DNA of 64,000 bases from positions 11,679-75,678 of the forward strand of contig CAYYXO010000002.1 of the NCBI GenBank assembly GCA_964475745.1, given 5' to 3'. The DNA comes from an uncultured Candidatus Saccharibacteria bacterium (GTDB lineage Bacteria > Patescibacteriota > Minisyncoccia > UBA6257 > JAKLIH01). Each line of letters opens with the position of its first letter. The first letter of the stretch is position 1. The notes under the pieces were generated by a model that saw only the letters and a program-made list of their open reading frames with translations, made no database searches and was not told where the DNA came from. The translations under genes and the position numbers were made by a program. This document shows, piece by piece, positions 8,324-62,423 of this stretch.

Positions 8324-10552
8324 ATGAAAGAAAGCAAAAAAAATAGCCCTAAGTTGTTAAAAAATAAAGAGGCACAAAAGGAGAAAGATTTGAAGAAAGT
8401 AAAAATAGAATATCATATTAAAAAAATACAAAACAGAGATGGTTTAATAAATAGCTTTGACGAATCTAAGATACGCAATGCTATTTTTAAAGCATTTACA
8501 TCTACTGGCGAAGGTGATGAGAAAACAGTTGATAAGATATTAAGTAAAGTTTTGTATATTTTAAATAAAAGGTTTAAAAAAGATGAAGCTCCAACAGTGG
8601 AAAACATTCAAGACATTGTGGAAGAATGTTTGATGACTTTTGGGTACACAGAGACAGCCAAAAACTATATTTTATATCGTGAACAACGTCGCCGTATCAG
8701 AGAAAGTAAAATTGCATCTGGTGAAGCAGTTGATATTGTTGACGAATATTTAAAAGAGCTTGATTGAGAGGTAAAAGAAAATAGTAATACCACTTACTCT
8801 TTGCAGGGCATGAATAATTATATTGCTAATTATGTTTCAAAAAAATATTGATTAAATAAAATTTATACTCCAGAAATACGAAAAGCAAATAGAGAAAACT
8901 TTTTTCACATTCATGATTTAGGAACTATAGGTGCTTATTGTTGCGGTTGAGATTTATATGATTTATTGGTAAAAGGTTTTGGTGGGGTTTCAAGCAAAAT
9001 TCAATCAAAGCCACCAAAACATTTAAGAACTGCTTTAGGTCAAATTGTAAATTATTTTTATACTTTACAAGGAGAGGTGGCTGGCGCTCAAGCTTTTTCA
9101 AGTTTTGATACTTATCTTGCTCCGTTTATTCGTCATGATAAATTAAGCTATGCAGAAGTTAAACAAGCATTGCAAGAATTTATTTTTAATTGCAATGTGC
9201 CGACTCGCGTTGGATTTCAAACTCCTTTTACTAATGTTACGCTTGATTTAAAATGCCCAAGCCATACTAAGGATTTACCAGTAATTATTGGTGGAGTTCC
9301 TCAAAAAGAAACTTATGGTGAATATCAAGAAGAGATGGATCTTTTTAATAAAGTTTTATGCGAAGTATATACAGAAGGAGATGCCACTGGAAGAGTGTTT
9401 ACTTTTCCAATTCCAACTTACAATATAACTAAAGATTTTGAATGAGATAATCATGCTTTTGAGGGTATTTGAAAAATGACAGCAAAATATGGCATTCCTT
9501 ACTTTTCTAACTTTATTAATTCTGAAATGTCCCCAGAAGATGCTCGCTCGATGTGTTGTCGCCTTCGTCTCGATAATAGAGAGCTATATAAAAGAGGAGG
9601 AGGTTTGTTTGGGGCCAATCCAAAAACAGGAAGTGTGGGCGTGGTTACTTTAAATTTGCCAAGAATTGCTTATTTGTCAAAAACCAAAAATCAATTATTT
9701 AAAAACATTAGAAAATATATGGATTTGGCAAGAGAATCTTTAGAAATAAAAAGAAAAACCATTGAAAAATTAACAGACAAAGGTCTTTATCCCTATAGTA
9801 AATATTATTTACAAGATGTGGTAAAAATGAGAGGCTCTTATTGAGCAAATCATTTTTCTACTATTGGTATTGTTGGTGGCAATGAAGCAGCACTTAATTT
9901 TATTGGTCAAGACATTACCACAGCAGAAGGAAAAAGTTTTGTTTTGGAAATGCTGGATTTTATGAGATCTGTTTTGGTTGAATATCAAAAAGAAGACGAT
10001 GGCTTGTATAATTTAGAAGCAACACCAGCAGAAGGGACAGGTTTTCGTTTGGCAAGGCTGGACAAAAAAGAATTTCCAGATATTATTACTTCTGGCACAG
10101 ACAAAACGCCTTATTATACCAATTCAACACAAATGCCAGTTAATTTTTCAGATGACTTGTTTGAGGTTTTGGATTGGCAAGATGACTTGCAAACAAAATA
10201 TACTGGAGGAACAGTTTTGCATGGTTTTATTGGAGAAGAAATTTCAGAATATGAGTCGGTTAAGTCTTTGATAAGAACCATTTTTACAGACTATAAATTG
10301 CCTTATTTAACAGTAACACCAACATTTAGTGTTTGCCCAACGCATGGCTATTTAGCAGGAGAGCATGAGCTTTGTCCTAAATGCATTGTGGAGCAAAAAT
10401 GTGAAGTTTATTCTAGGGTGGTAGGCTATTTAAGACCAGTAGTAAATTGGCATGCCGGTAAACAACAGGAATTTAAAGATAGGGTGGAATTTACTATTAA
10501 AAGACAGTTTAATGTTTTTGATAATAAAAAAACGCCAGTAAATAAAAAATAA
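8324..10552 (+). CDS. nrdD: anaerobic ribonucleoside-triphosphate reductase, class III (about 742 aa, 5 in-frame TGA)
   Basis: N-terminal ATP-cone (IQNRDGLINSFDESKIRNAIF), the NrdD core (MTAKYGIPYFSNFINSEM), a C-terminal Zn ribbon CPKC and the glycyl-radical motif SRVVGYLRPV. The 8324, 8966, 9476 and 9944 segments are in one frame. Confidence 0.85.
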
Positions 10553-10553
10553 A

Positions 10554-11252
10554 ATGCTTATAGGTGGTTTTCAAAAATTAACTTTAATTGATTATCCTAA
10601 GAAAATTGCAACCATTGTTTTCACAGTTGGTTGCAATTTTCGATGTGGGTTTTGCTATAATTTAGATTTGGTTATACCAAGTAGGAAAAAATCTTTGACA
10701 CTAACAAAAGAAGATGATTTTTTTGATTTTTTAGCTTCAAGAAAAGGGAAATTGGAGGCAGTTGTTGTCACTGGTGGAGAACCTACTTTACAAAAAGATT
10801 TAGAAATTTTTTTAAAGAAAATTAAATCTCTGGGTTTTTTAGTTAAACTAGACACCAATGGAACAGCCCCAGAGAAAATAAAAAAATTGATTAAAAAGGG
10901 GTTGGTTGATTATATTGCTATGGACATAAAAAATCGCCTTACAGAAAGTAAATATAAAAAAATTGTTGGCACAAAAGTAGATATAAACGCTATTAAAAAA
11001 AGCATTAAACTTCTTATGGAAAATAAGATTGATTATGAATTTAGAACAACCATGGCTCCTGGAATTACCAAGGAGGATCTGTTGTCAATAGCAAAATCAA
11101 TCAAAGGAGCAAAAAAATATTTTTTACAGGAGTTTAAAGATACTGAAGTAATTGACTTGGGCTGTAAAAAAGATGCCTGGTTAAAAGAAGAAGAGCTGAA
11201 AGATTTTAAAAAAGAAATTGATAAACTGGTAAAATATTCAAAAATAAGATAA
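10554..11252 (+). CDS. nrdG: anaerobic RNR activating protein (radical SAM)
   Basis: CNFRCGFC radical-SAM cluster motif, located immediately after nrdD. Confidence 0.85.
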   Translation: MLIGGFQKLTLIDYPKKIATIVFTVGCNFRCGFCYNLDLVIPSRKKSLTLTKEDDFFDFLASRKGKLEAVVVTGGEPTLQKDLEIFLKKIKSLGFLVKLDTNGTAPEKIKKLIKKGLVDYIAMDIKNRLTESKYKKIVGTKVDINAIKKSIKLLMENKIDYEFRTTMAPGITKEDLLSIAKSIKGAKKYFLQEFKDTEVIDLGCKKDAWLKEEELKDFKKEIDKLVKYSKIR

Positions 11253-11343
11253 CATGAAAAATGTTTTATACCTAAGGCTGTTTAGATGTTTTGTAATATT
11301 TTTTATTTTTAGTCTGGTGTGACTAAATTTAAGTAATTTTTCT

Positions 11344-12750
11344 GTGAAGCTTTGGTTAATTTTGCTTTTATTTTTCTTAGTGATTTATTTTAAAAAAGAG
11401 TTGTTTTTATTAATCGGTTTTAATTTTAAAACTTTTGGGATAGTCTGTGCGATGGCGCTAATAAGCGCTGTTTTTGTTTACAGATTAAACTATCAAGCTG
11501 TACCAGAAGAAGCTTTAAAGGAAGCAAAAGATATTAAGATACTGATTATAAGAGATGGTGTTTTGATACAAGATTATAAAGTTGTTTTAGGGAAAATTAT
11601 TAATCAAGGTGAATTAGAAGGTCAATATGTTTTTATAAAATTTGATCTTTTAGAAGATTATAAGATAGGCCAAATTGTTTTACTTAAAACTGGTTTAAAA
11701 AAAATAACCAAAACATCTTTACCCTTTGACATGTTGTTTTCCGGAAGAGTTCTTTATCAGGTTGATTTTGAAGAAATGACTGTCTTGGGTCAAGAAAATC
11801 AATTTAATTTGTTTCAAAAAATAGCCAACTTAAGAGACAAGGTTGATCAAAAAATTAAACAAGTTTTTCATTTAAAAAATTATGAGCTGGTTTCGGCTTG
11901 ACTGCTAGGTAAAACAAAGGTTGTTGATTATGAATTAAATGATTTATTTAGAAGAGCTGGTATAAATCATATATTGGTTATTTCTGGAACCCATTTGTCT
12001 ATTTTATTCAATGTTTTTTTATTTTTGCTTATTTTGATGCCTTTTGGATTTGCTTGGTTAAATTTTGTGCTATTGATATTTTTTCTTTTAGTTTTTTTGC
12101 TTTTAACAGGCATGTCGGCCTCTATTTTAAGAGCTTCTATTATGTGGTTTTTAATTTTATTGGCAAAAACCAAAGGTCTAATTATAAATTATACAAATAT
12201 ATTGTTTTTATTGGTTTTAGTGGTGGCCTTGATAAATTCATGAGTGATTGTTTATGATGTTGGGTTCCATTTGAGCTTGCTGTCAATTGTTTCCTTGGTT
12301 TATATTTTCCCCATTATTCTATTTTATTTTGAAAAGGCAATGCTAATTAAAGGCAAGTTGGTTAAATATTTTGGTTTTGTTTTTTTAGCTTCATTGGCGA
12401 TATCAATCGGGCTTTTTCCTTATTTGGTTTTTGTTTTTAAAGAGTTTAATTTTTTGAGCATGTTTTTTAATGTATTACTAATGCCTTTAGCGGCTATAGC
12501 TTTAATCTTAGTATTTGTGACGCTATTAGTCTCTTTCTCATGGTTGTTTTTAGGGCAAATACTTGGCTTTTTTTCAGCTATAGCAATAGATCTTTTTATG
12601 TGGTGTTTGACGTTTCTGGGTGATTTTGGCTTGAGAGGCAATGTTTTAATGTTTAATTTAAACTATATGGTTTTGATTTATTATCTTGGCTTGTTTGTTT
12701 TGGTCGTTGATTTTTATAAAAAACATAAAAAATTAACTTTAAATTTATAA
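11344..12750 (+). CDS. comEC: competence protein ComEC/Rec2, membrane channel part (about 468 aa, 2 in-frame TGA)
   Basis: Polytopic membrane protein with the GINHILVISGTHLSILF competence-domain motif. It ends at TAA 12748, one nucleotide before the next ATG. Confidence 0.75.
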
Positions 12751-12751
12751 T

Positions 12752-13606
12752 ATGATAGAAAAAGATTTTTTGAAAAAAGGCTTGGTTTTTATTTTGATAG
12801 TTTTGAATGTTTATGTTTGAAGCTTGGTGGCTAATTTTTTGTTTTTTAAAAGAAGCGTTAATTTTTTAGATGTTGGCCAAGGAGATAGTGCCTTGCTTGT
12901 TTTTAAATCTGGCAATATTCTAATAGATGCAGGGAAAAGAAATTATGTTTTAAAGCCATTAGCAAAAACATTGCCTTTTTTTGACAAGACAATTGACTTG
13001 GCTATAATTACTCATGCAGATACAGATCATTTCGAAGGACTTTATTTCATTTTAGATAATTATAATGTGCGACTGGTAATGATAAACGACTTTCATACAA
13101 AATCTGAAAGCTATAAAAAACTTTTAAATAAAATAGCAGAAAAAAACATTAAGGTGGTTTATGGTGTTTTTGGTGCAAAAGTTTTAGGGGAAGATTTTAA
13201 TATTGAAGTCTTGTTTCCACAAAAAGAAGAAATTGACATTAAAAAAACTAACGAAAATTCAATTGTAGCGAATGTTTTTGCTTTAAAAAATAACTTTTTA
13301 TTTACTGGCGATATAAATGATAAAATTTTAGAAAAAATTTTAAAAAGGAATGTGCACTTAGAAGTTGATTTTTTGAAATTGCCTCATCATGGTGCTAAAA
13401 ATTCTCTGAATAAAAAGATTTTAGAATACTTTAACTTTAAGAAAGTGATTGTTTCTGTTGGCAAAAATAGCTATGGCCATCCCAACAAAGAGATCATCGA
13501 AATGATAGATTTTTTTAATAGAGGGGTTTTGAGAACAGACGAATTAGGCACAATTAGATTTTCTGAGTCAAAAGAGGGCAAAAACAGTGTTTTTATTGGC
13601 AATTAG
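12752..13606 (+). CDS. ComEC C-terminal-like metallo-beta-lactamase domain protein (about 284 aa), encoded as a separate ORF
   Basis: FLDVGQGDSALL, HADTDH and LPHHGAKNS match the MBL-fold signatures of the ComEC C-terminal domain. It is in a different frame from 11344..12750 and has its own ATG at 12752. Confidence 0.7.
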
Positions 13607-16853: not shown

Positions 16854-18995
16854 ATGAAAATAAAAATAAATAAGGTTTCTAGCAAGGTAGATAAAAAAGA
16901 AGAAAAAGCTATAAAAACTAATTTAACTAAAAAAGAAGGAAAGCCAAAAAAAGAAGTGGTTTTAAAAAATGAGGAAGCTAAAGACAATGGCTATACAGCT
17001 GAAAGTATTCATGTGCTTGAAGGCTTAGACCCGGTAAGAAGAAGGCCAGGCATGTATATTGGTTCAACTGGTATTTCTGGTTTGCACCATTTGGTTTGAG
17101 AAGTTTTTGACAATGCCATTGATGAAGCTTTGGGTGGTTTTTGTGATAATATAAAAATTGAATTATTAGAAAATAATCGCGTTAGTATTTTTGATAATGG
17201 TAGAGGTATTCCAGTTGATGTTCATAAACAAACAAAAAAATCCGCTTTAGAAACTGTTTTGACGGTTTTGCATGCTGGTGGTAAATTTGGTGGAGGATCT
17301 TATAAAATTTCTGGCGGTTTGCACGGTGTGGGTGTGTCAGTGGTAAATGCTTTGTCTAGCTACTTAAAAGCAGAAGTATACCGAGAAGGTTTTATTTATT
17401 GCCAAGAATATAGCTGTGGCAAGCCGTTAACAGAGGTCAAAAAGACTCAAACAAAAGAAAAAATAATGCATGGCACTCGGATTACTTTTGAGCCAGATGC
17501 AACCATTATGCAAGAAATAAATGTAGATTGAAAAACCATTTTAGATCATGTTAGGGAGCAAGCTTATTTGGTTAGAAAAATAAAAATAGATATTTCGGAT
17601 AAAAGAGACCCTGAAAATCAAAATGACTATGTTTTTTATTTTGAAAATGGTATTGTTGCCTTTCTAAGTTATTTGATAAAAGACCACAATACAAGGTCAA
17701 TACAGAAAAATATCTTTTTTACTGAAGAGACTTCCAATGAAATAGAAGTTGAGATTGCTTTGAGCTATACCACAGAGATTGAAACTTCCGAGTTTGCTTT
17801 TGCCAATAATATTCATACTCCAGAAGGAGGCATGCATTTAACCGGCTTTAGAGCCGCCTTAACAAGAGTTTTAAATGATTATTTAAAAAAGAACTATCCA
17901 AAAGAAAATTTATCACTAACAGGAGAAGATGTAAGGGAAGGCTTGATGGCAATTATTGCTGTAAAATTAAAAGAGCCTCAGTTTGAAGGTCAAACAAAGT
18001 CAAAACTTGGCAATCCAGAAGCAAGAGCTGCTGTTGAGCAAGTTATGTCAAAAGCATTTAGAGATTATTTAGAAAAGAACCCAGATGATGTAAAAAGAAT
18101 TTTAGAAAAATGTTTAGTTTCAGCTAAGGCAAGATCTGCTGCAAAGCTAGCAAGAGAAAATGTTTTGAGGAAAAGTGTTATGGAAAACACCACTTTGCCA
18201 GGAAAATTAGCTGATTGTATTAGTCGTAAAGCAGAAAATTCTGAATTGTTCATTGTTGAGGGCGATAGCGCTGGCGGCTCGGCCAAACAAGGAAGAGACC
18301 GTCATACTCAAGCCATTTTGCCTTTGCGAGGAAAAATTTTAAATGTTGAAAAGGCTAGATTAGATAGAATGATGACTTCAGAAGAAATTAAAGCGGTTAT
18401 TTTAGCTTTGGGAACTTCAATTGCAGAAGATTTTAATTTGAGCAAATTGCGTTATCATAAAGTTGTTTTGATGACTGATGCTGATGTAGACGGTGCTCAT
18501 ATTAGAACATTGCTTTTAACATTGTTTTATAGATATTTCTTAGGAGTAGTAGAAGGTGGATTCTTGTATGTTGCTCAGCCACCTTTGTATCGTATTCAAA
18601 GAGGTAAAGATTTCAGATATGCTTATACTGAAGGAGAGAAAGAAAAAATGATAGATGAGCTATTAAAGATAAAAGAGGCTAAAAAAGAAGCAGGAGCTAA
18701 AAAAGAAGAAAAAAATGAAGAAGAATCTCCAGAAGAAGTAGCAGAAGAAGTTTCAGACGAAATGAAAAAATACAAGGGATTAATAATCCAAAGATATAAA
18801 GGTTTGGGAGAAATGAACCCAGAGCAATTATGAGAAACAACTATGGATCCTAAAACAAGAATATTAAAAAAGATTACTATTGATGATGCTAAAGAAGCAG
18901 ACCGTTTATTTGACATTTTGATGGGAGAGGAAAGAATGCCTCGTAAAAAGTTTATCCAAGTGCATGCTAAAAAAGTTAAAAACTTAGATGTATAA
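16854..18995 (+). CDS. gyrB: DNA gyrase subunit B (about 713 aa, 3 in-frame TGA)
   Basis: [19 protein letters not shown] in the GHKL ATPase domain, the Toprim segment [15 protein letters not shown], and the C-terminal [20 protein letters not shown], where TGA sits on the invariant Trp. No gyrA follows. Confidence 0.92.
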
Positions 18996-22277: not shown

Positions 22278-22529
22278 ATAAAACAGTTAACTAATATTAA
22301 AAGTTCATATTCTTATGAATAAAAGAGATTCAAAAAACAGTTTAAAATTCAGGTGGTAAAAACACAGAGTTTTTCTTTGTGATTATACCGCTTGTCAAAA
22401 GCGGTTTTTTAATTCTCTAATAGTATTGGTTGATCTTTGAAAAAAGAATAAGGGTAAAATGTATTTTCATTGGAAAATTAAATAAAAAACTTAATTGAAG
22501 TTTCTTCAATGCTTTAATTAAGATGAGGA

Positions 22530-25590
<3,061 letters not shown>

Positions 25591-25637: not shown

Positions 25638-25746
25638 GGGCTGGTGATTAATTGTGATATGTCCCACTCGTTTCCATTTCGAACACGATAGTGAAAGTAT
25701 CATGACTCGATAATACTCGCAAGGGGAAAGTAGAGTTTGCCAGCCC
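25638..25746 (+). rRNA. rrf: 5S ribosomal RNA
   Basis: Helix I GGGCTGG/CCAGCCC and the conserved internal CCCACTCGTTTCCATTTCGAACACGATAGT. It sits directly after 23S. Confidence 0.8.
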
Positions 25747-30005: not shown

Positions 30006-30152
30006 ATAAAAGCAATACTTCAGTAGGAAGTGTTCTTTTAAACTTGAAAATTTAGATATACCACAACTAACAAATTCAAAGTTTTTTAGTTGCTCTAAAG
30101 GTTTATTTTTTTTGAATAAATTTTGTATATTTTATATACAGTTGTTTTTTTT

Positions 30153-31672
<1,520 letters not shown>

Positions 31673-31799
31673 TTTTAGGAATCTTTGTTTAATTTGATTC
31701 GTCAAATTAAACTATTCCAAGGTCGTCCCGAATATTTTTTAAATATTTTGGAACTTGTTAAACTAAACCTGCTGGAGCAACTAAAAAGTTTTGAATCAA

Positions 31800-34606: not shown

Positions 34607-35317
34607 ATGGCAACAACAAAAAGGTATTTTTACTCAAATGAGTTTTATCATATTATTTTAAGAGGTATTGATGGAAAAACTTTGTTTTTAAACGACCAAG
34701 ACTATTTTAGAATGATCAATGGCATGTTTGTTTTTAATGATAAAGGGTTAATAGGTTCTTCTTTTCGACACAAAGGATGTCCAAATGATAGATTTGAAAG
34801 AAAAAGAAAAGGGCCTTTGGTAAATATACATGCTTTTTGCTTAATGCCAAATCACATTCATTTTTTGTTGGAACAAAAGGTTGAAGGGGGTCTGTCAAAA
34901 TTTATGTTAAAAATAGGAGCCGGCTATGCGGCTTTTTTTAATAATAAATATAAAAGAAAAGGCCATTTGTTTCAAAGCAGATTTAAGTCGGTTTTAATAA
35001 AAGATGATGATCAGTTGGCAGTAATTTTTTCTTATATCCATACAAATCCGGTTTCTATAATAGAACCTAATTGAAAGGAAAAGGGTATAAAAGATTTTAA
35101 AAAAGTTAGAAATTTTATTGAAACCTATAGGTGATCAAGTTATGCTGATTATTTAGGTAACAAAAATTTTCCAAATTTAACAAAAAGAAATTTTATGCTT
35201 CAAGATCAAAATCAACGCGCTTGAAGAAATTTCGTAGAAGACTGGCTAAAGTATAAGGCAGAGTTGTTTGAGCGTTTTTTTAAAGACAAAGGCAAAGATA
35301 GTTATTTATTGGAGTAA
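34607..35317 (+). CDS. IS200/IS605-family Y1 (HuH) transposase-like protein, RAYT/COG1943-like (about 236 aa, 3 in-frame TGA)
   Basis: HuH motif LMPNHIHFLL, the catalytic-Tyr region FSYIHTNPV, and C-terminal YR-TGA-SSYADY matching the WSSY box. It uses TGA for Trp, so it is host-adapted. No tnpB is adjacent. Confidence 0.7.
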
Positions 35318-35539: not shown

Positions 35540-35790
35540 ATTAAATATGTCAACACCATGCTTAGCGAGTTAAATTTCAAAGCCCATCATGGTGTTGGCC
35601 ATCATTTCAGCTTAATCAATTACAACGTAGCAAGGCAACGTTGTATATTCTCCTTTGATTAATCAGGCCTAACGCTACCTGGTAACGGAGGGAGGGAGTG
35701 GTTTGTGGGGATATTTGGTGGTTGTTTTATATTACGTAGCGGGAGGGGATCTTGGTGTTATTTTAAATTATGCAATGCGAGTGGTTGTAT
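35540..35790. other. GC-richer structured non-coding element with inverted repeats and G-tracts
   Basis: Inverted repeats caacaccatg...catggtgttg (35551..35596) and tacaacgt...acgttgta (about 35618..35645). A G-tract cluster follows: GGAGGGAGGGAGTGG..GTGGGG...GCGGGAGGGG (35690..35745). It contains no ORF. Confidence 0.35.
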
Positions 35791-35841
35791 AAATGATATA
35801 AATATGCTAAAATTGATTTAAATAGCTTAATTGTATTATTT

Positions 35842-36783
35842 ATGAATGATATATCAAAAAAAAAGGAAGAGTTTCTTTTAAAAATTATGAGTTCAACAAA
35901 CGCTGATAAATTTAAAAGATATTTAGGAAGCCCATTGCGATATGCAGGAGGTAAAACATTGGCTGTCGGGTATATTGTAAAATTGTTGCCTAATAAAATA
36001 GATAGAGTTGTTTCGCCTTTTTTAGGGGGGGCTTCAGTTGAAATTGCCTTGGCAAAAGAGCTGGGACTTGAAGTTATCGGGTATGACATTTTTGACCTAC
36101 TGATAAATTATTGGAAGAACCAAATTAATAATCCTGAGCAGCTGTATCAGAATTTAAGAATATTGGCAAACACAAAAAATAAATATCAAGAGGTAAAAAA
36201 TATTTTAAAAAATATATGAAATAAAAATGATGGCCTGTTGAAAAATGATTTTTCTAGTTTAGAATTGGCAACTTATTATTATTTTAATCATAACTTAAGC
36301 TATGGACCTGGATTTTTGGGATGGATGTCGTCAAATTATTTAGATAATAAAAAATATGATTCAATGTTGAAAAAAGTTAAGAATTTTAAGGTTTGTAATT
36401 TTCATGTTCGTACATCAAGTTTTGAAGAAGCAATCCCGATGCATAAAAAAGATTTTTTATATTTGGACCCGCCTTATTATTTAGACGGAGACAGTAAAAT
36501 GTTTAAAGGGATATATCCAATGAGAAATTTTCCAATACATCACAATGGCTTCAACCACGAATTATTATTTAATTTGTTAAAAAATCATGATGGCGGTTTT
36601 ATTTTGTCATATAATGATTGCGAATGGGTAAGAAAAAAATATAAAAATTTTAAAATTATAGATATTGAATGGCAATATACAATGGGACAAGGGGAGACAA
36701 GAATAGGTAAAAACAGATTGTCAAGAAATTATGACAATAACAATGTAAAAAAATCTCATGAATTATTAATTATAAATTATTAA
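35842..36783 (+). CDS. Dam-family (D12-class) N6-adenine DNA methyltransferase (about 313 aa, 1 in-frame TGA)
   Basis: N-terminal SAM motif LRYAGGKTL (a Dam motif I-like FxGxG/YAGGK) and the catalytic motif IV LYLDPPYY (DPPY). The 35842 and 36238 segments are in one frame across the TGA at 36217. Confidence 0.8.
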
Positions 36784-36798
36784 ATATAAAATAGCGAT

Positions 36799-37398
36799 AT
36801 GTTAATTAAAAAAGTAAAAACAGCTTTTAAAATAGCAGACGTTGAGCTTGTAAAGAATACAACAAAATTAAAATTTAATTATTTGTCCACCATAAAAGAT
36901 GAAAATAATAAAATTTTACCAAAGGACATTCTTACTAAAAATTACGCAAGAGTTTATCTAATTGTTGTTGACGGAGAGATAAAAAAAATAGGGGCGTCGC
37001 AAGATAAGGGGGGAATGAAGGGGACGTTGAGTATTTATAAAGATGGTGGCGTAAAAGGAAGGCCAAGCATAAGAAGTTTCGGCATCTGGTATTTTTTGTA
37101 TCGTACTGCGATGCAAGGTAAAAAAATTGAGTTTTATATGATATATCATGACAATTTCAATTTTGAGATTAAGGGTTTGTTACAAACATATCAAACAACA
37201 TTAGCGAGCATAAGCTGTAAGCTTATTGAATATTATTGTGTTAAAGATTATTTGTCGATGGAAAACAATCATTATCCAGACTGGAATGTTCAAGAACAAG
37301 CAATGGATTGGCCAGAAGAGGTTAAAAGAGAACATTCTAGAATAACAGCAGGTAGTTTAAATAATAAATCTAAGAGAAAAAAAATGAAAATGGCATAA
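36799..37398 (+). CDS. hypothetical protein, possible PD-(D/E)xK nuclease partner of the MTase (199 aa)
   Basis: It lies directly downstream of the Dam-family MTase. LPKD-(15 aa)-VVDGEIKK fits a PD...(D/E)xK spacing. No other family was recognised. Confidence 0.35.
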   Translation: MLIKKVKTAFKIADVELVKNTTKLKFNYLSTIKDENNKILPKDILTKNYARVYLIVVDGEIKKIGASQDKGGMKGTLSIYKDGGVKGRPSIRSFGIWYFLYRTAMQGKKIEFYMIYHDNFNFEIKGLLQTYQTTLASISCKLIEYYCVKDYLSMENNHYPDWNVQEQAMDWPEEVKREHSRITAGSLNNKSKRKKMKMA

Positions 37399-50773: not shown

Positions 50774-52960
50774 ATGAAAAAAATTCTTATTGTTTTGACT
50801 TTATTATTGCTTGTGTTTAAAATTGCCTTATCGGCTAGCAATGAATTTTGTATTACGGGCAAAATTATTGGTATGAGCACAAGCGCACAAACGATTGTAG
50901 TTGAGCCAGAAATTTCTTTAACAACAAGGGTGGTTAGTTTTTTAAAAAATATTTTTAATCGACAGTCATCTGTTGCTCCGACTCAATATGTTTTTGAGCT
51001 AACAAAAACAACTCAATTATTAGATGATAAAAAAAATCTTATTACTTTAGACAATGTTTCTATTGGTGATAGGGTCACTGCTTGTGGCATTGTGATGGAA
51101 GAAGATGAAGACTATAATATATTACAAGCAAGATCTGTGGCTATTCAAAAGCAACGAGGTTCTTTAATTGCTGAATGAGTAAGTACTTTAGTTGATATTG
51201 GACAAAGAAGAGAATTTAATGTTACAGAAAGAGGAGGCGTTGATGTTGGCGTAGGATTATGGCCGATAACTTCCATGACCAACTGTGTTTTTGAAGGCGA
51301 GCCTGTTTTGATAAATCCTTTGCTTGATCCAAAAGGTGAAAAAGTAAAGCCATGTTGTGATGGTCTGATTTTATGTAAATCAGAAGAAGGCACAGTTACA
51401 AAGCTAGGAGTTAATTATATTATTGCGGGAGTTTGTATGAGAAATTGTGAAGATCCAATTAATGCAAATGATGCTGACAAATTTAAAATTTATTCTCCCT
51501 GAGAGCTTTTAAAAAATCAAATGGCAAAATTTCAAGAGTCTGATAAAATTTCTTTACCAAAAGAAAAAAATCTTTTAACTTTACCTCCCCAATGTCTAAC
51601 GGATGATGATTGTTTTCCTTTTCCAGATGATTTTGATATTGATGGGATGAGGATCATAAAGCCTAATTCTATGTTTCAAAGTATAGGAAATATTCCAGAA
51701 GGATGATTGCCTGTTTGCAGAAAAGGGGTTTGCGTTTGAGAGATAGCATATCCTCAGCCAAGAGTGGATGACTTTGAAAGAGAGATTTATTGAGCTGGAT
51801 ATTGTTCAAAAGATGATGAATGTGTTTTTGATGGTAACAGTTGTGTTTTAAGAAGCAATGCTTATTCTGGATTAGGTTTTTTTGCAGAGATGTTTATAGA
51901 TAAAAATAAATCAGCAGATTGTGTTTGTAGAAATAATGCTTGTGTTAGTTTAAGTGGAATGGGATTGGGATTGCCAGGAAGAGGATTGATTGATTGTGGC
52001 AAAGAGGTGGTTGAGGTTTGTGGAGAAGATAATAAAACTTATCTAAACCCATGTTTTGCTATACAAGCAGGTGTTAATATTAAACATTATGGCAAATGTA
52101 TGTCAGACGCTGGGAAAAAACCCGATACAGGTATGATACCATTTCCAGATGACGACCCAATGATGTGTAAAAGTAATTTTGAATGTGCGTGGTGTAATAA
52201 TGGTTGTTTTACCAGAGAAATGATATCCCAAAGCAATATGAAATGCGATCCAAATAAAAAAATTCCTCAAGGCATGACTTGTCTTTGCTTAAGAAGTGGA
52301 ATGTGTGAGCTTAGGTCACAAGGTGATTTAGGCGGAGCTGTGCCACCAGCAACTTCACCAGAAAGAAGGCATGTGCCCGATAATGTTTGCCTAGCAGATA
52401 AAGATTGTGTTTTTTGTGGACAAGAATGTTTAACCACAATAGTTGTTGACCAGATGATTTCTATGGGCAGATCTTGTAGAGTTGATTTACAACCAGCAAA
52501 TGCAAAATGTGTTTGCAGGCAAAGCAATTGTTCAATTGAATATCAACAAGTACCTCAACCAGAACCGCCAAAAAGTGAAAACGGGCAAATTAACCCAAGA
52601 GAATCAAATATATTAGGTTTTTGTGGTATAGAGACAGGAGGGTATTGTAGTAATGATGCAGATTGTAAAGTAGGAGGATGTTCTGGGCAAGTGTGTCAAT
52701 CAAGAACAGAAGTGGATATGATTACTATATGCGATTGAAAAGATTGTTATCAAAAACAAGGTGTTTATTGTGGATGTGTTTCAAATAAATGCATGTGGTA
52801 TCAATCGGGAAGTCAAAATCTACCTCAGCCTCCAGAGAGCAGTTTTCCTGAGATAGGTTTTCCTCATATTGACAATCAAATAAATGTCAATTACCATGAT
52901 CAGAATATGTTTCAGCATAATAATGATTTATGGCAATCGCCAACATACATTACTTATTAA
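50774..52960 (+). CDS. large secreted cysteine-rich protein with a Kazal-like motif and repeated C-x2-D-x-(D/E)-C modules (about 728 aa, about 8 in-frame TGA)
   Basis: Signal peptide MKKILIVLTLLLLVFKIALSA. ORF-track segments 50774, 51275, 51521 and 51890 are all in one frame and interrupted only by TGA. It contains VCGEDNKTYLNPCFAIQAGVNIKHYGKC (Kazal VCGxDxxTYxNxC...GxC) plus CLTDDDCFPFPDD, CSKDDECVF, CKSNFECAWCNNGC, CLADKDCVFCGQEC, CSNDADCKVGGCSGQVCQ and CDWKDCYQKQGVYCGCVSNKC. Confidence 0.55.
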
Positions 52961-56303: not shown

Positions 56304-56427
56304 ATTAGTTGAAAAAAAGTTAAACATTGTCTATAATATATATTAAGATTAAAATATTTTTGTGAAAACAATAAAAGATATAAAAAACTCTGATAAATAC
56401 TATTGAACAAATCATGTAAAAAACAAA

Positions 56428-56775
56428 ATGATTTTTTATGGTTTGTCGGAGTCTTTGATAAAAAGAATTTTGAGATTTCCTAAAAGAACTGAAGAGGGTA
56501 TCGCGCCAAATACTTTGGCAGTAATGAAAGCTGCTGGTTCAAAGAAAAATCCTTATGAGCTTTGGGTGATGTATCAGGTAGCAAAAAATAAAAACAATAA
56601 AAGCAATATAATAGATGAGGATATTTTAAACAAGCTTTCTGAAAAAGAAGTTGTTGATATTGCTAAGACCAAACCTCAAATTGTGGTTATTAGTGCTTGA
56701 AAATATCCTGGTATTACCAAAGCAAAAGAAGAGGTGCCTATTCCTGAAGATGTCAGAAAGATTTTTGGCTTGTAA
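56428..56775 (+). CDS. hypothetical protein (about 115 aa, 1 in-frame TGA)
   Basis: Uninterrupted frame with a plausible start. It shows no recognisable domain. Confidence 0.3.
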
Positions 56776-56838
56776 TTTTTGAAAAAATTGTTTAAAATAT
56801 CATTAGTAAAAACAATTAATAAAATAAGATTAAATATT

Positions 56839-57600
56839 ATGAAAAATTTTAAATTTTATTTAGCAGGGTCTTTAGTGATTCTCTTTCTGCTGTTTTTTCA
56901 ATTTGTGTTTGTGGTTTTAAAAGAAGCCACTATTTTGGATAGAGCTCAAAAAGAATGAGATCCTTCTAATATAGAATTAAGGGATTTGGGCTTTACCTCT
57001 GATAGGTTCGTAAAAGATAAAAATATCAGAAAAGAAGTAATTAAATACAACAACAAGAAATTTTTAGTGGTTTTTATGGGCAACGAACAGTCATATTTTG
57101 ATAGAAAGATAGTTGCCAATATGTTTGTTTATGGCCCCGACATTTCAGGAAAAACAGTTTTAAAAGATTTTCAATCTTTTACCTTGACTCCAAAAGAAGA
57201 ACCATTTTTTAAAGATAATTTACCAGAATTGCCTTTTGTGGAAAAAGTGGTTGATATAAATGGAGATGGTGTTCCAGAAATATTAGTTAATCTAGGAAAT
57301 TACCCAGGTCTCGGAGCTCGCTATACAGTGGTTTCTTATGATTTGATAAGAGAAGATTTAAAATGACTTCGAGTTCAAGATAAAAATGGTATTATTGATC
57401 AAGCTTGATTCTTTGAAGGGTATTTTGATGATGCTATCCTTAGATTTGAAATAGATGAAAAAGAAAGTTCCGTCTATCAGTTTATTGGGGTTATGCCAAG
57501 AGATATTAGCGAGGAAGAAAGCTTAGATTTAAATAATTGAAACTGAAGAGTGGATATTTTTACTTTAGCAAGGGAGGGCGGCTTGTTTATTCAAAAATAA
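56839..57600 (+). CDS. hypothetical exported protein (about 253 aa, several in-frame TGA)
   Basis: N-terminal TM/signal segment. The 56839 ATG is in frame with the 56986 ORF across TGA. Confidence 0.4.
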
Positions 57601-57602
57601 TT

Positions 57603-58466
57603 ATGGTTAAAAAAATATATGTTATAAATAACTCTGGAGAGAGGGAGTTGTTATCTAAAAATAAAATAATAAATAGTGCCAAAAGAAGTGGTGCTAGTTT
57701 GGATTTGGCTAAAAAAGTTGCTGACATTGTAACAGAAAAAGTTGACGAAGAAATGACCACAAGGAAAATTTATGCATTGATTAAAAAAACTTTATTAAAA
57801 GAAAGTCCGGCAAGCGGCATGAAGTATTCTTTAAAAGAAGCCATAAGAAAGTTGGGGCCAACAGGACATTGATTTGAAAAATATGTAGCTGATATTTTAA
57901 AGGAGTATGGCTACAAAACTAAAATTAATCAGATAGTAAAAGGCCGTTGTGCTGATTTTGAAGTTGATGTTTTGTTGTGAAAAGATGAAATAAAAGAATT
58001 TTCTTTTGGCGAATGTAAATATCATAACAATCCTGGAGCTAAAGTTTCTATTTCAACTATTTTAGAAAACTTTGCTAGCTTTATTGATTTAAAAGATGGC
58101 AAATTGGGGCAATCTTTTGTTGACAAAAAGTATAATTTAAAAAGAGCCATCATTACAAATACAAAGTTTACCTCAAAAGCTATTACTTATGCTAATTGTT
58201 ACGGAGTAACTCTCTTGGGTTGAAAATATCCAAAAGGAAGGGGTTTAGAATACTATATTGATGGCAAGAATCTTTATCCAGTAACTATTTTGCCTTCTGT
58301 GACTTCATTAATGCTCGAAGAGCTTTATAATAAAAATGTTTTATTAGTGAAGGAATTATTAGATGAAAATGTTCAGAAAAAACTTAAAAAAAGTTCTTTG
58401 CCAAATGTAAATGTTGACAAGATAGTTAAAGAGGCAAAAATACTTTTTAAAGAAGAAGGGTTTTAA
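57603..58466 (+). CDS. ATP-cone domain fused to a restriction-endonuclease-like (Mrr/PD-(D/E)xK-like) domain (about 287 aa, 4 in-frame TGA)
   Basis: N-terminal YVINNSGERELLSKNKIINSAKRSGASLDLAKKVADIVTEK.. is the same ATP-cone pattern as the NrdD N-terminus. The following domain has CADFEVDVLL-TGA-KDE...FGECKYH, fitting a D...ExK nuclease core. Confidence 0.55.
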
Positions 58467-61202: not shown

Positions 61203-62423
61203 TTAAAAATCCGAGAAATCATCATAAACTTTGGCATGGATGTTTTTATTGATGTCTCCGTTGGTAAATAATTTTGTGTCTTTTTTGTTGGTGGTTTTAA
61301 CAATTTTTACTTTGTTTTTTACTTTTTTACATGTTTCTATTTGTTTTCTGGTGTCTTCTGGTATTTCTCTCATAATATCATTAAAAGATTCTTTATCTAT
61401 TTTGATTAAACCATTTCATTTGTCTAGTGGTTGCAAAATTTCTTTGATCTTTTTTCATTCATAAGTGTAGATTTCTTTGTCATTGATTTCAAAACAACCC
61501 TCATCACTTTCAAGTTTGAAGAGTTTTTTTTGAACAAGAAAGTTGTCTATTTGGCATTTGATTTTGTCAATCTCTTTTTCTAAAATTCTTTTTTTGTCAT
61601 GAAGAGTAAAATATTTGTTGATTAAATGCTTAGTACTTTGTTCGTCTTTAGGGATCTCTTTTTGTTGGTAGTTTCTAAAAGCAGGACAAATATTTTTAAA
61701 ACCACATCAATTGCATAAAATAGTTGGTTTTGGCGGAAAAATCTTTTCTTTTTCTATGTCTTTTATAGTTTTGATTATTTGGTATTTGGTTTTTTCTAAA
61801 TCATCAATATTTCGTTTGGTTTTTAGATGTTCTTGGTGGCGCAGAAAATACAAAGAAAGATCTAGCTTATCTAATTCAATTTTGGGTCATTTATTAATGA
61901 CAGCCATTGCATATATGGAAAGCTGGTTGTTGTCGTCAACATTTTTTTGAGTTGGGAGTCTTTTGCCAGTTTTGTAATCAACAATTTCATAGTGATTGTT
62001 TATTTTACTAATGCGGTCAATAATGCCAGAAACAATATGCAGATTATTGTTGGGCTCCTTTATTTCTAGTTCAAAAGGAGATTCAAGACCCAAAACAGTA
62101 AGTTTATCAAAATGATTGTTCTGGTAAAAGCCTTTAAGCATCATTATGCCTTCGTCAAAATTAAAGCCATTTAAATTTTTTTCTTTATTGCTTTTTAAGT
62201 CAAAATATTTGATTTCACCAAAATGAGCTTCATAAAAGGAAAGCAGATCTTTTAAAGATATTTTTTTTGGGTCATTTTCAAAGAATCATTGTAAAACGTA
62301 ATGCAAATAAGTGCCAAAAACAGCTGCTTCTGATTTTGGCTCAATTAACTTGTCTATTTTGCCCAACTTGTATTTATGGGGGCATTGTTTGAATGTTTCT
62401 AAAGAAGAATGTGAAACGCGCAT
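61203..62423 (-). CDS. Cas4-like/RecB-family PD-(D/E)xK nuclease with a 4Fe-4S cysteine pattern (about 406 aa, about 6 in-frame TGA)
   Basis: Minus-strand frame rejoined across TGA. N-terminal QCPHKYKL supplies the first Cys. The nuclease core is GIIDRISKINNHYEIVDYKTGK...QLSIYAMAV. The C-terminal CNWCGFKNICP supplies CxxCx5C. Only the 85-aa piece at 61887..62144 is visible in the ORF track. Confidence 0.65.

Follow-up and report, generated by a model that had tools for sequence, protein, structure and literature searches.

A predicted nuclease carrying an ATP-cone at its N-terminus in a candidate phyla radiation genome that reads UGA as tryptophan

Why would a genome-reduced bacterium join a nucleotide sensor to a nuclease? 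This question is raised by a gene at positions 57603-58466, forward strand, of a 64,000-nucleotide stretch (hereafter the window) of contig CAYYXO010000002.1, from an uncultured Candidatus Saccharibacteria bacterium that belongs to the candidate phyla radiation (CPR, or Patescibacteria). An initial annotation described its product as an ATP-cone fused to a restriction-endonuclease-like domain. We confirmed a three-domain protein, with an ATP-cone, a PD-(D/E)xK nuclease fold and a helix-hairpin-helix (HhH)-like C-terminal domain. Both folds named at the outset are present, but the third domain (AF1548-like_C) and the need to read UGA as Trp had been overlooked. We tentatively propose, at somewhat less than even chances, that the protein is an ATP-cone-controlled endonuclease of the Mrr_cat/AF1548 type, anchored by its HhH domain, that serves housekeeping nucleic-acid turnover for nucleotide salvage.

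The three domains of the protein

The nuclease domain (amino acids 87-222, 57861-58268) is of the Mrr_cat/AF1548 type. Pfam Mrr_cat (PF04471) matches amino acids 87-204 with 28.4 bits against a cut-off of 21, and 87 of 119 homologs match it at E<=0.01. The sequence of AF1548 (PDB 1Y88) matches at E 4.5e-26, and a single phmmer alignment spans both 1y88 domains. In its classification of the PD-(D/E)xK superfamily, a survey puts 1y88 with Mrr_cat, within the Mrr group (PMC3424549). In the predicted structure (predicted local distance difference test, pLDDT, 94), two fold searches recovered the alpha-beta-beta-beta-alpha-beta restriction-endonuclease-like fold.

The residues expected of an active site are in place. 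E92, E120, D122, E137, C138 and K139 are invariant among the 119 homologs. Across 76 genomes of bacteria and archaea, no full-length sequence has lost any residue of the E-D-E-K tetrad. E92 (57876-57878), the helix-1 acidic residue of the PD-(D/E)xK site, is present in 75 of 76 aligned loci; the exception, L077, lacks this region through N-terminal truncation. D122 (57966-57968) and the E137-C138-K139 element (58011-58019, aligned to 'IECKFHN' of 1y88) correspond in the phmmer alignment to D38 and E51-x-K53 of AF1548. The D38, E51 and K53 residues are predicted to be catalytic and align structurally with the catalytic residues of restriction endonucleases (PMC1874628, PMC1821046). The D...E-C-K core described earlier is thus D122 with E137-C138-K139, and the search for a nuclease fold in the C-terminal part, put forward as a refuting test, found that fold. 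We predict that the protein is a metal-dependent nuclease.

Behind the nuclease domain lies a helical, HhH-like domain (amino acids 225-279, 58275-58439), presumed to bind DNA. It matches AF1548-like_C with 27.4 bits (cut-off 23.9), co-linear with the nuclease domain, and 117 of the 119 homologs match as well. Beside the tetrad, C116 (57948-57950), C138 (58014-58016), C199 (58197-58199) and H141 (58023-58025) are conserved family-wide and in AF1548. These four residues could have a structural role, or form a metal or redox site.

The N-terminal domain (amino acids 5-84, 57615-57854) is a divergent ATP-cone. Its score against the Pfam ATP-cone family (PF03477) is 22.7 bits, below the gathering cut-off of 25.8, and the Pfam check suggested for the pair of domains succeeds for Mrr_cat but falls short for the cone. 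Across the family, PF03477 matches 99 of the 119 homologs at E<=0.01 (best E 5.5e-8), and a fold search with the predicted model recovered a beta-hairpin lid and a four-helix cone. A profile of the N-terminal 84 residues found no significant cone among PDB sequences, with designed helical repeats at the top and NrdR at E 0.19. The comparison with the cone of the window's NrdD, itself strong at 76 bits, was not significant (E 0.11), with the right register throughout (VINNSG/IQNRDG, F/F, K/K). A search of the protein against NCBIfam gave no match. We rest the assignment on the family-wide Pfam hidden Markov model (HMM) and the fold matches, because these comparisons of the single protein were not significant; it is weak by sequence in this protein and firm at the family level. 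The earlier likening of this domain to the NrdD cone therefore holds for the family HMM and the fold, but not for the protein's own Pfam score or the direct comparison.

In the structure of Escherichia coli NrdR, residues V51, K53, E59, P60, F61, K65 and L66 line the adenine pocket (bioRxiv 10.1101/2025.03.28.645925). By register, their counterparts in the family consensus are V7, N9, E15, P16, F17, K21 and V22, and only the lid Lys differs. The protein studied here retains V7, G12, E15, K21 and I22; its lid reads VINNSG against the V-x-K-R-D-G pattern, with N-N for K-R, and L-L stands for P16 and F17. E15, K21, T53 and K78 are conserved. Outside the CPR the cones are canonical, with 'VIKASGE' in Nitrospirota, Bacteroidota and Hadarchaeota and 'VVKRDGR..F...KI' in an archaeon. 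S18, K21, G30, A36, T53, L64, L77 and K78 are invariant, and because several cone residues are invariant the cone is under purifying selection and is not a relic. No zinc ribbon of the NrdR type (CxxC...CxxC) is present: the cone (MVKKIYVINNSGE) stands at the start of the protein, and Cys pairs are absent from the N-terminus. Purifying selection is strong on all three domains, and the mean column identity of the family alignment is 52%.

Reading frame and genetic code

With UGA as Trp, the gene is a complete open reading frame (ORF) of 287 amino acids that ends in TAA (58464-58466). Read by the standard bacterial code, the region breaks up, leaving only ORFs at 57537-57872 and 58290-58466, with three internal stops. 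All three are TGA, at amino acids 90 (57870-57872, where homologs carry P, W or D), 126 (57978-57980, variable among homologs) and 207 (58221-58223, where W stands in 120 of 120 homologs and 76 of 76 aligned loci). With TGA as W, the translation is a 100% match to the public protein P0001, and the gene start is backed by the family N-terminus 'M..K.YVIN' and by the end of the upstream ORF at 57600. The ORF is real and the coordinates first given for it were exact, because the protein read in this way equals P0001 and the TGA at residue 207 aligns with an invariant Trp. We considered a pseudogene broken by stops and rejected it, as every stop is TGA and aligned with Trp.

The same holds across the window. 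Genes including queA, tgt, nrdD and polA are broken up under table 11 and become long ORFs once only TAA and TAG are stops. TGA occurs 102 times against 45 for TGG, and genes end in TAA (37) or TAG (6). At 40 TGA sites aligned with standard-code homologs, the majority residue was Trp in 14, Phe or Tyr in 9 and Gly in none. All six TGA codons of NrdD (8324-10552) align with Trp, and in a GyrB-like gene (16854-18995) the TGA directly before ETTMDP aligns with a Trp of E. coli GyrB. This genome reads UGA as Trp, neither as stop nor as Gly, because TGA aligns with Trp, outnumbers TGG and leaves only TAA and TAG as stops. Code 25 (UGA as Gly), known for Gracilibacteria and Absconditabacteria, was rejected, since Gly makes up 1 of 213 aligned residues at TGA sites.

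The recoding is shared by the four closest relatives of the gene (L001-L004), from metagenome-assembled genomes labelled Patescibacteria. Neither the window nor these four loci yielded a tRNA(UCA). A 2021 Codetta survey reported UGA as Trp only in Mycoplasmatales/Entomoplasmatales and insect endosymbionts, and UGA as Gly in CPR lineages (PMC8629427). Because that survey lists UGA as Trp outside the CPR only, the organism may belong to an undescribed CPR-type clade that uses code 4. Unless UGA is read as Trp, genes of this lineage will be missed or shortened in annotation. One other protein that depends on this reading is a very cysteine-rich one of 728 amino acids (50774-52960, forward strand), with a signal-like hydrophobic segment at its N-terminus and six TGA-encoded Trp.

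Genomic context and possible roles

Outside the CPR, the neighbours of the family point to a role. Its two plasmid matches, in Pontibacter actiniarum and Criblamydia sequanensis, each head a shared co-directional cluster of the ATP-cone protein, a metallo-beta-lactamase (MBL)-fold metallo-hydrolase, a thymidine-phosphorylase (TP)-family protein and a ribose-phosphate pyrophosphokinase (PRS). Phosphoketolase, glycogen phosphorylase and acetate kinase flank the Criblamydia cluster, and in L064 (Bacteroidota) the cluster extends to a class I aldolase, a TP-family enzyme and PRS. The MBL/TP-family/PRS module lies at 2829-6597 of L081, 6834-10602 of L082 and 8852-15944 of L064. The MBL gene, with beta-CASP and RMMBL domains, stands at +1 in five further Bacteroidota genomes, L064 being one of them (loci with the gene at this position also include L059, L062, L067 and L073). 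By NCBIfam, the MBL protein resembles beta-CASP ribonucleases (aCPSF1/Cas14-like), with scores under the equivalog cut-offs, and the phosphorylase is of the archaeal type. Just upstream in the archaeon L051 stands a gene that clears the AMP-phosphorylase equivalog cut-off (618 against 535 bits), along with an ATP-dependent DNA ligase and an enzyme of the phosphomutase type. The cluster-linked homologs retain every diagnostic residue of the protein studied here.

AMP phosphorylase and phosphoribosyl pyrophosphate (PRPP) synthetase belong to the 'AMP pathway' that leads from nucleotides to central carbon metabolism in archaea and CPR bacteria (PMC5113843). The MBL, PRS and TP genes are also adjacent, and co-induced under microoxia, in Bradyrhizobium diazoefficiens (bll3115-3117) (PMC6515984); a pathway role for the trio is apparently not established in the literature that we found. 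As an observation in its own right, a module of a beta-CASP/RMMBL MBL protein, an archaeal-type thymidine/AMP-phosphorylase-family enzyme and a ribose-phosphate diphosphokinase recurs in Bacteroidota and Chlamydiota. We interpret the clusters outside the CPR as pointing to the start of a nucleic-acid breakdown that feeds mononucleotide catabolism or salvage.

Our proposal builds on this context and on the domains. The protein would be a Mg2+-dependent PD-(D/E)xK endonuclease of the Mrr_cat/AF1548 family that its HhH-like domain keeps on nucleic acid, and the N-terminal cone would put it under adenine-nucleotide control. By analogy with ribonucleotide reductase (RNR) and NrdR, the adenine nucleotide that sits in the cone, be it ATP, dATP or another, would alter the oligomeric state and thereby turn cutting on or off; there is precedent for nucleotide occupancy setting oligomeric state and activity in these systems (PMC4390871; bioRxiv 10.1101/2025.03.28.645925). 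The first cuts would feed DNA or RNA into mononucleotide salvage or catabolism along the AMP-phosphorylase/PRPP route. We infer the nuclease activity, the substrate, the binding of nucleotides and the gating by them, the last by analogy, as well as the transfer of the salvage role to the CPR organism.

Heading a cluster, as the gene does in Pontibacter, Criblamydia and Bacteroidota, is also typical of an autoregulated repressor. The protein could accordingly be pictured as a non-catalytic, NrdR-like transcription regulator, in which the cone senses ATP or dATP and the nuclease fold and HhH domain bind DNA to repress the downstream catabolic operon; NrdR provides the precedent of an ATP-cone that steers DNA binding via oligomerisation. 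However, E-D-E-K is invariant in all aligned homologs, bacterial and archaeal, which would be unexpected for a domain that only binds, and CPR genomes lack a downstream operon that such a protein could control. We regard such a regulator as very improbable.

The recurrent non-CPR partners bear on a second alternative as well, a structure-specific endonuclease of DNA repair or recombination (like NucS/EndoMS, Hjc or XPF/Mus81), whose cone would couple cutting to the dNTP (deoxynucleoside triphosphate) supply for repair synthesis. These partners are catabolic (phosphorylase, PRPP synthetase, aldolase, beta-CASP RNase-type), and in the 77 loci no recurrent association with genes for recA, ruvAB, ligase, clamp or polymerase was found. 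The protein also has neither a clamp-binding motif nor a NucS-like mismatch-binding N-domain, its N-terminus being the cone. We consider a repair role unlikely.

The initial annotation had left the choice between defence and housekeeping open, and had suggested a check for defence islands in related genomes. No defence gene recurs beside this one. In the set of 133 immediate neighbours each Pfam family occurs six times at most, DNA methyltransferases are not among the recurrent families, and PADLOC identified five scattered families only. A tblastn search of 50,697 phage records found no copy, and one of 72,556 plasmids found only two; these collections under-sample CPR mobile elements, which tempers what this absence lends to our proposal. 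The gene matches the window in GC content, in GC content at third codon positions and in codon usage. It has long been resident, because its composition and codon usage are native and its Trp codons are all TGA; recent horizontal acquisition was rejected on the same native composition and codon usage. The lack of recurrent methyltransferase or defence genes, the absence from phages, the near absence from plasmids and the native composition argue against a restriction-modification (R-M) or defence-island role, and restriction of foreign DNA is probably not the function. Of the two roles left open, housekeeping is the one favoured.

Some observations do favour a stand-alone defence nuclease of the restriction or abortive-infection type (Mrr/type IV-like), which would sense a phage-caused disturbance of the ATP/dATP pool. 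The catalytic domain is in Pfam Mrr_cat and the Mrr group (PMC3424549), and its structural neighbours include the sensor-plus-nuclease defence proteins MspJI, AspBHI, Can2, Card1 and Cdn1. The family is spread patchily across phyla, consistent with some horizontal transfer, and PADLOC gave weak matches to CARF_PDDEXK and Csx1 (E>=7e-4, about 1e-3). These matches, however, are confined to the generic nuclease core, and the protein has none of the domains with which Mrr, MspJI and AspBHI read modified DNA. The high conservation noted above, the native codon usage with recoded Trp and the housekeeping synteny also speak against this reading, as do the neighbour, phage and plasmid results. We judge it improbable.

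The salvage proposal has its own difficulties. Several points weigh against it, the first of which concern the cone. P16 and F17 are Leu in the protein's own clade, and the lid Lys is Asn in the protein and in 35 of 51 CPR-labelled loci, while it is kept in 14 CPR-labelled and all 25 non-CPR loci. With these substitutions and the Pfam score below cut-off, nucleotide binding in this protein may be altered or lost. Others concern the context: the cluster-linked homologs are only 31-37% identical to the protein, and in CPR loci no homolog of MBL, TP or PRS was found in the 8 kb on either side (an MBL-like fragment in L025 excepted), nor anywhere in the window. The substrate is ambiguous, as the HhH tail suggests DNA and the RMMBL-type partner suggests RNA, and the literature searched holds no assay of any family member. 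The salvage reading agrees with the setting of the gene in CPR genomes, which is of the housekeeping type and inherited vertically. CPR bacteria are known to scavenge nucleotides, and the window carries nrdD-nrdG beside a split comEC, plus dcd. The nrdD gene (with its strong ATP-cone), nrdG and the split comEC are consecutive on the forward strand (8324-13606). The Competence domain of comEC lies at 11254-12750 and its MBL domain at 12752-13606, and dNTP synthesis here adjoins a DNA-uptake channel.

In the window, the gene lies among housekeeping genes, in the order queA, tgt, queH, S-adenosylmethionine decarboxylase, a small protein, a membrane protein, the gene itself, tRNA-Leu(CAA), S41 peptidase, L9, L27, a Cas4/RecB-like nuclease and NAD kinase. 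The small protein (137 amino acids, weakly DUF4258-like, 56362-56775) is followed after 3 nucleotides by the membrane protein (273 amino acids, 56779-57600), which ends 2 nucleotides before our gene. The best promoter-like site (56309-56337) precedes the 137-amino-acid gene; the number of such sites in the region is not above chance. The two upstream genes (56362-57600, forward strand) are probably co-transcribed with the nuclease gene, which describes their context and does not imply a functional link. The four closest relatives, at 59-63% identity, keep the same local gene order, with the same trio of the two upstream genes and our gene.

The small DUF4258-like protein is the most frequent CPR neighbour of the family (12 of 77 loci, often at -2), and the commonest neighbour cluster occurs in 11-12 of the 77. 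No conserved operon partner was found in CPR loci, this best candidate being too sparse and poorly annotated. The only annotation it receives is a DUF4258 similarity below threshold (best E 0.0026), and none of its relatives has a solved structure. Homologs of about 115-137 amino acids occur in L001-L003, L005, L007, L011, L013, L015, L030, L039 and L047; they are well conserved, with invariant W-T-x-H and SAW-x-YPG motifs.

A second PD-(D/E)xK nuclease, of 406 amino acids, lies nearby on the reverse strand (61203-62423). It matches PDDEXK_1 with 105.6 bits and, more weakly, DUF2800 and Cas4, and it carries a C-terminal Cys cluster (CNWCGFKNIC). The sole DNA methyltransferase that we identified in the window belongs to the D12 class (35770-36783) and is 21 kb from our gene. 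This N6-adenine methyltransferase and the unannotated 199-amino-acid ORF after it (35770-37398, forward strand) may be a small R-M pair. An IS200-like Y1 transposase (34607-35317, forward strand) lies just upstream of the pair; none of this is related to our gene. The rRNA order is also unusual: 23S (22522-25582) and 5S (25640-25745) lie upstream of 16S (30151-31676), all on one strand, and about 4.4 kb of protein-coding sequence comes in between.

The family and its relation to known systems

The gene is a further, ordinary member of a catalogued and experimentally unstudied family. We searched 1.84 billion cluster representatives exhaustively with an HMM and obtained 1,538 clusters (50% identity) at E<=1e-3, 978 at E<=1e-10 and 549 at E<=1e-30, and nearly all of the best 150 clusters have the full three-domain length. 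At least 594 loci encode the family when one genome per species is scanned. With 549 clusters at the strictest threshold, the architecture is not uncommon, as had been thought, but it is indeed poorly characterised: full-text searches of the literature that paired 'ATP-cone' with 'nuclease' or 'restriction endonuclease' brought up no account of the fusion. The matches listed are mostly from Patescibacteria and also from Nitrospirota, Bacteroidota, Actinomycetota, Gammaproteobacteria, Hadarchaeota and other archaea. Databases name the family 'restriction endonuclease', 'ATP cone domain-containing protein', 'ATPase' or 'Holliday junction resolvase', and the first of these names is probably misleading.

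ATP-cones are on/off switches of dNTP synthesis, acting directly in RNR and at the level of transcription in NrdR. If our proposal is true, a nuclease under such a switch extends this logic from the synthesis of nucleotides to their recovery from nucleic acids, which is central to how CPR bacteria live with minimal biosynthesis. A bolder extension, which we think doubtful though worth stating, is that the family forms a third functional class of ATP-cone proteins after RNR and NrdR: an adenine-nucleotide-gated endonuclease that opens the AMP-phosphorylase/PRPP (pentose-bisphosphate-type) route. In genome-reduced CPR bacteria that rely on scavenged nucleotides, it would provide a regulated entry to imported or own DNA and RNA as a source of nucleotides and carbon, and the Lys-to-Asn change in the lid would retune the nucleotide that is sensed. 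The family is compact (about 280 amino acids), modelled with high confidence and present in cultivable hosts (Flavobacterium, Fluviicola, Pontibacter), which makes the idea drawn from the gene clusters directly testable.

Among known proteins, AF1548 of Archaeoglobus fulgidus (199 amino acids, Mrr_cat plus AF1548-like_C) lacks an ATP-cone, unlike the protein described here; it is a structural-genomics protein whose nuclease function is predicted only (PMC1821046, PMC1874628). Mrr and the other type IV restriction endonucleases of Mrr_cat share the Pfam catalytic family and the PD-(D/E)xK motif with our protein. Mrr reads modified DNA through an N-terminal winged helix, whereas our protein has an ATP-cone in that place, an HhH domain at its C-terminus and no defence or R-M context. 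Unlike NucS/EndoMS, it has no NucS N-terminal DNA-binding domain or clamp motif and no linkage to repair genes, and its motif is of the Mrr type, in contrast to the GDxnERKx3D of the ERCC4 nucleases XPF and Mus81. Can2, Card1 and Cdn1 join a PD-(D/E)xK nuclease to a CARF sensor activated by cyclic oligoadenylate; here the sensor is an ATP-cone and there is no CRISPR context. NrdR carries an N-terminal zinc ribbon and no nuclease, its domain order is reversed, and its lid Lys is Asn in the subclade studied here. In the cones of NrdA, NrdB and NrdD the effector is the reductase, whereas in this family it would be the nuclease.
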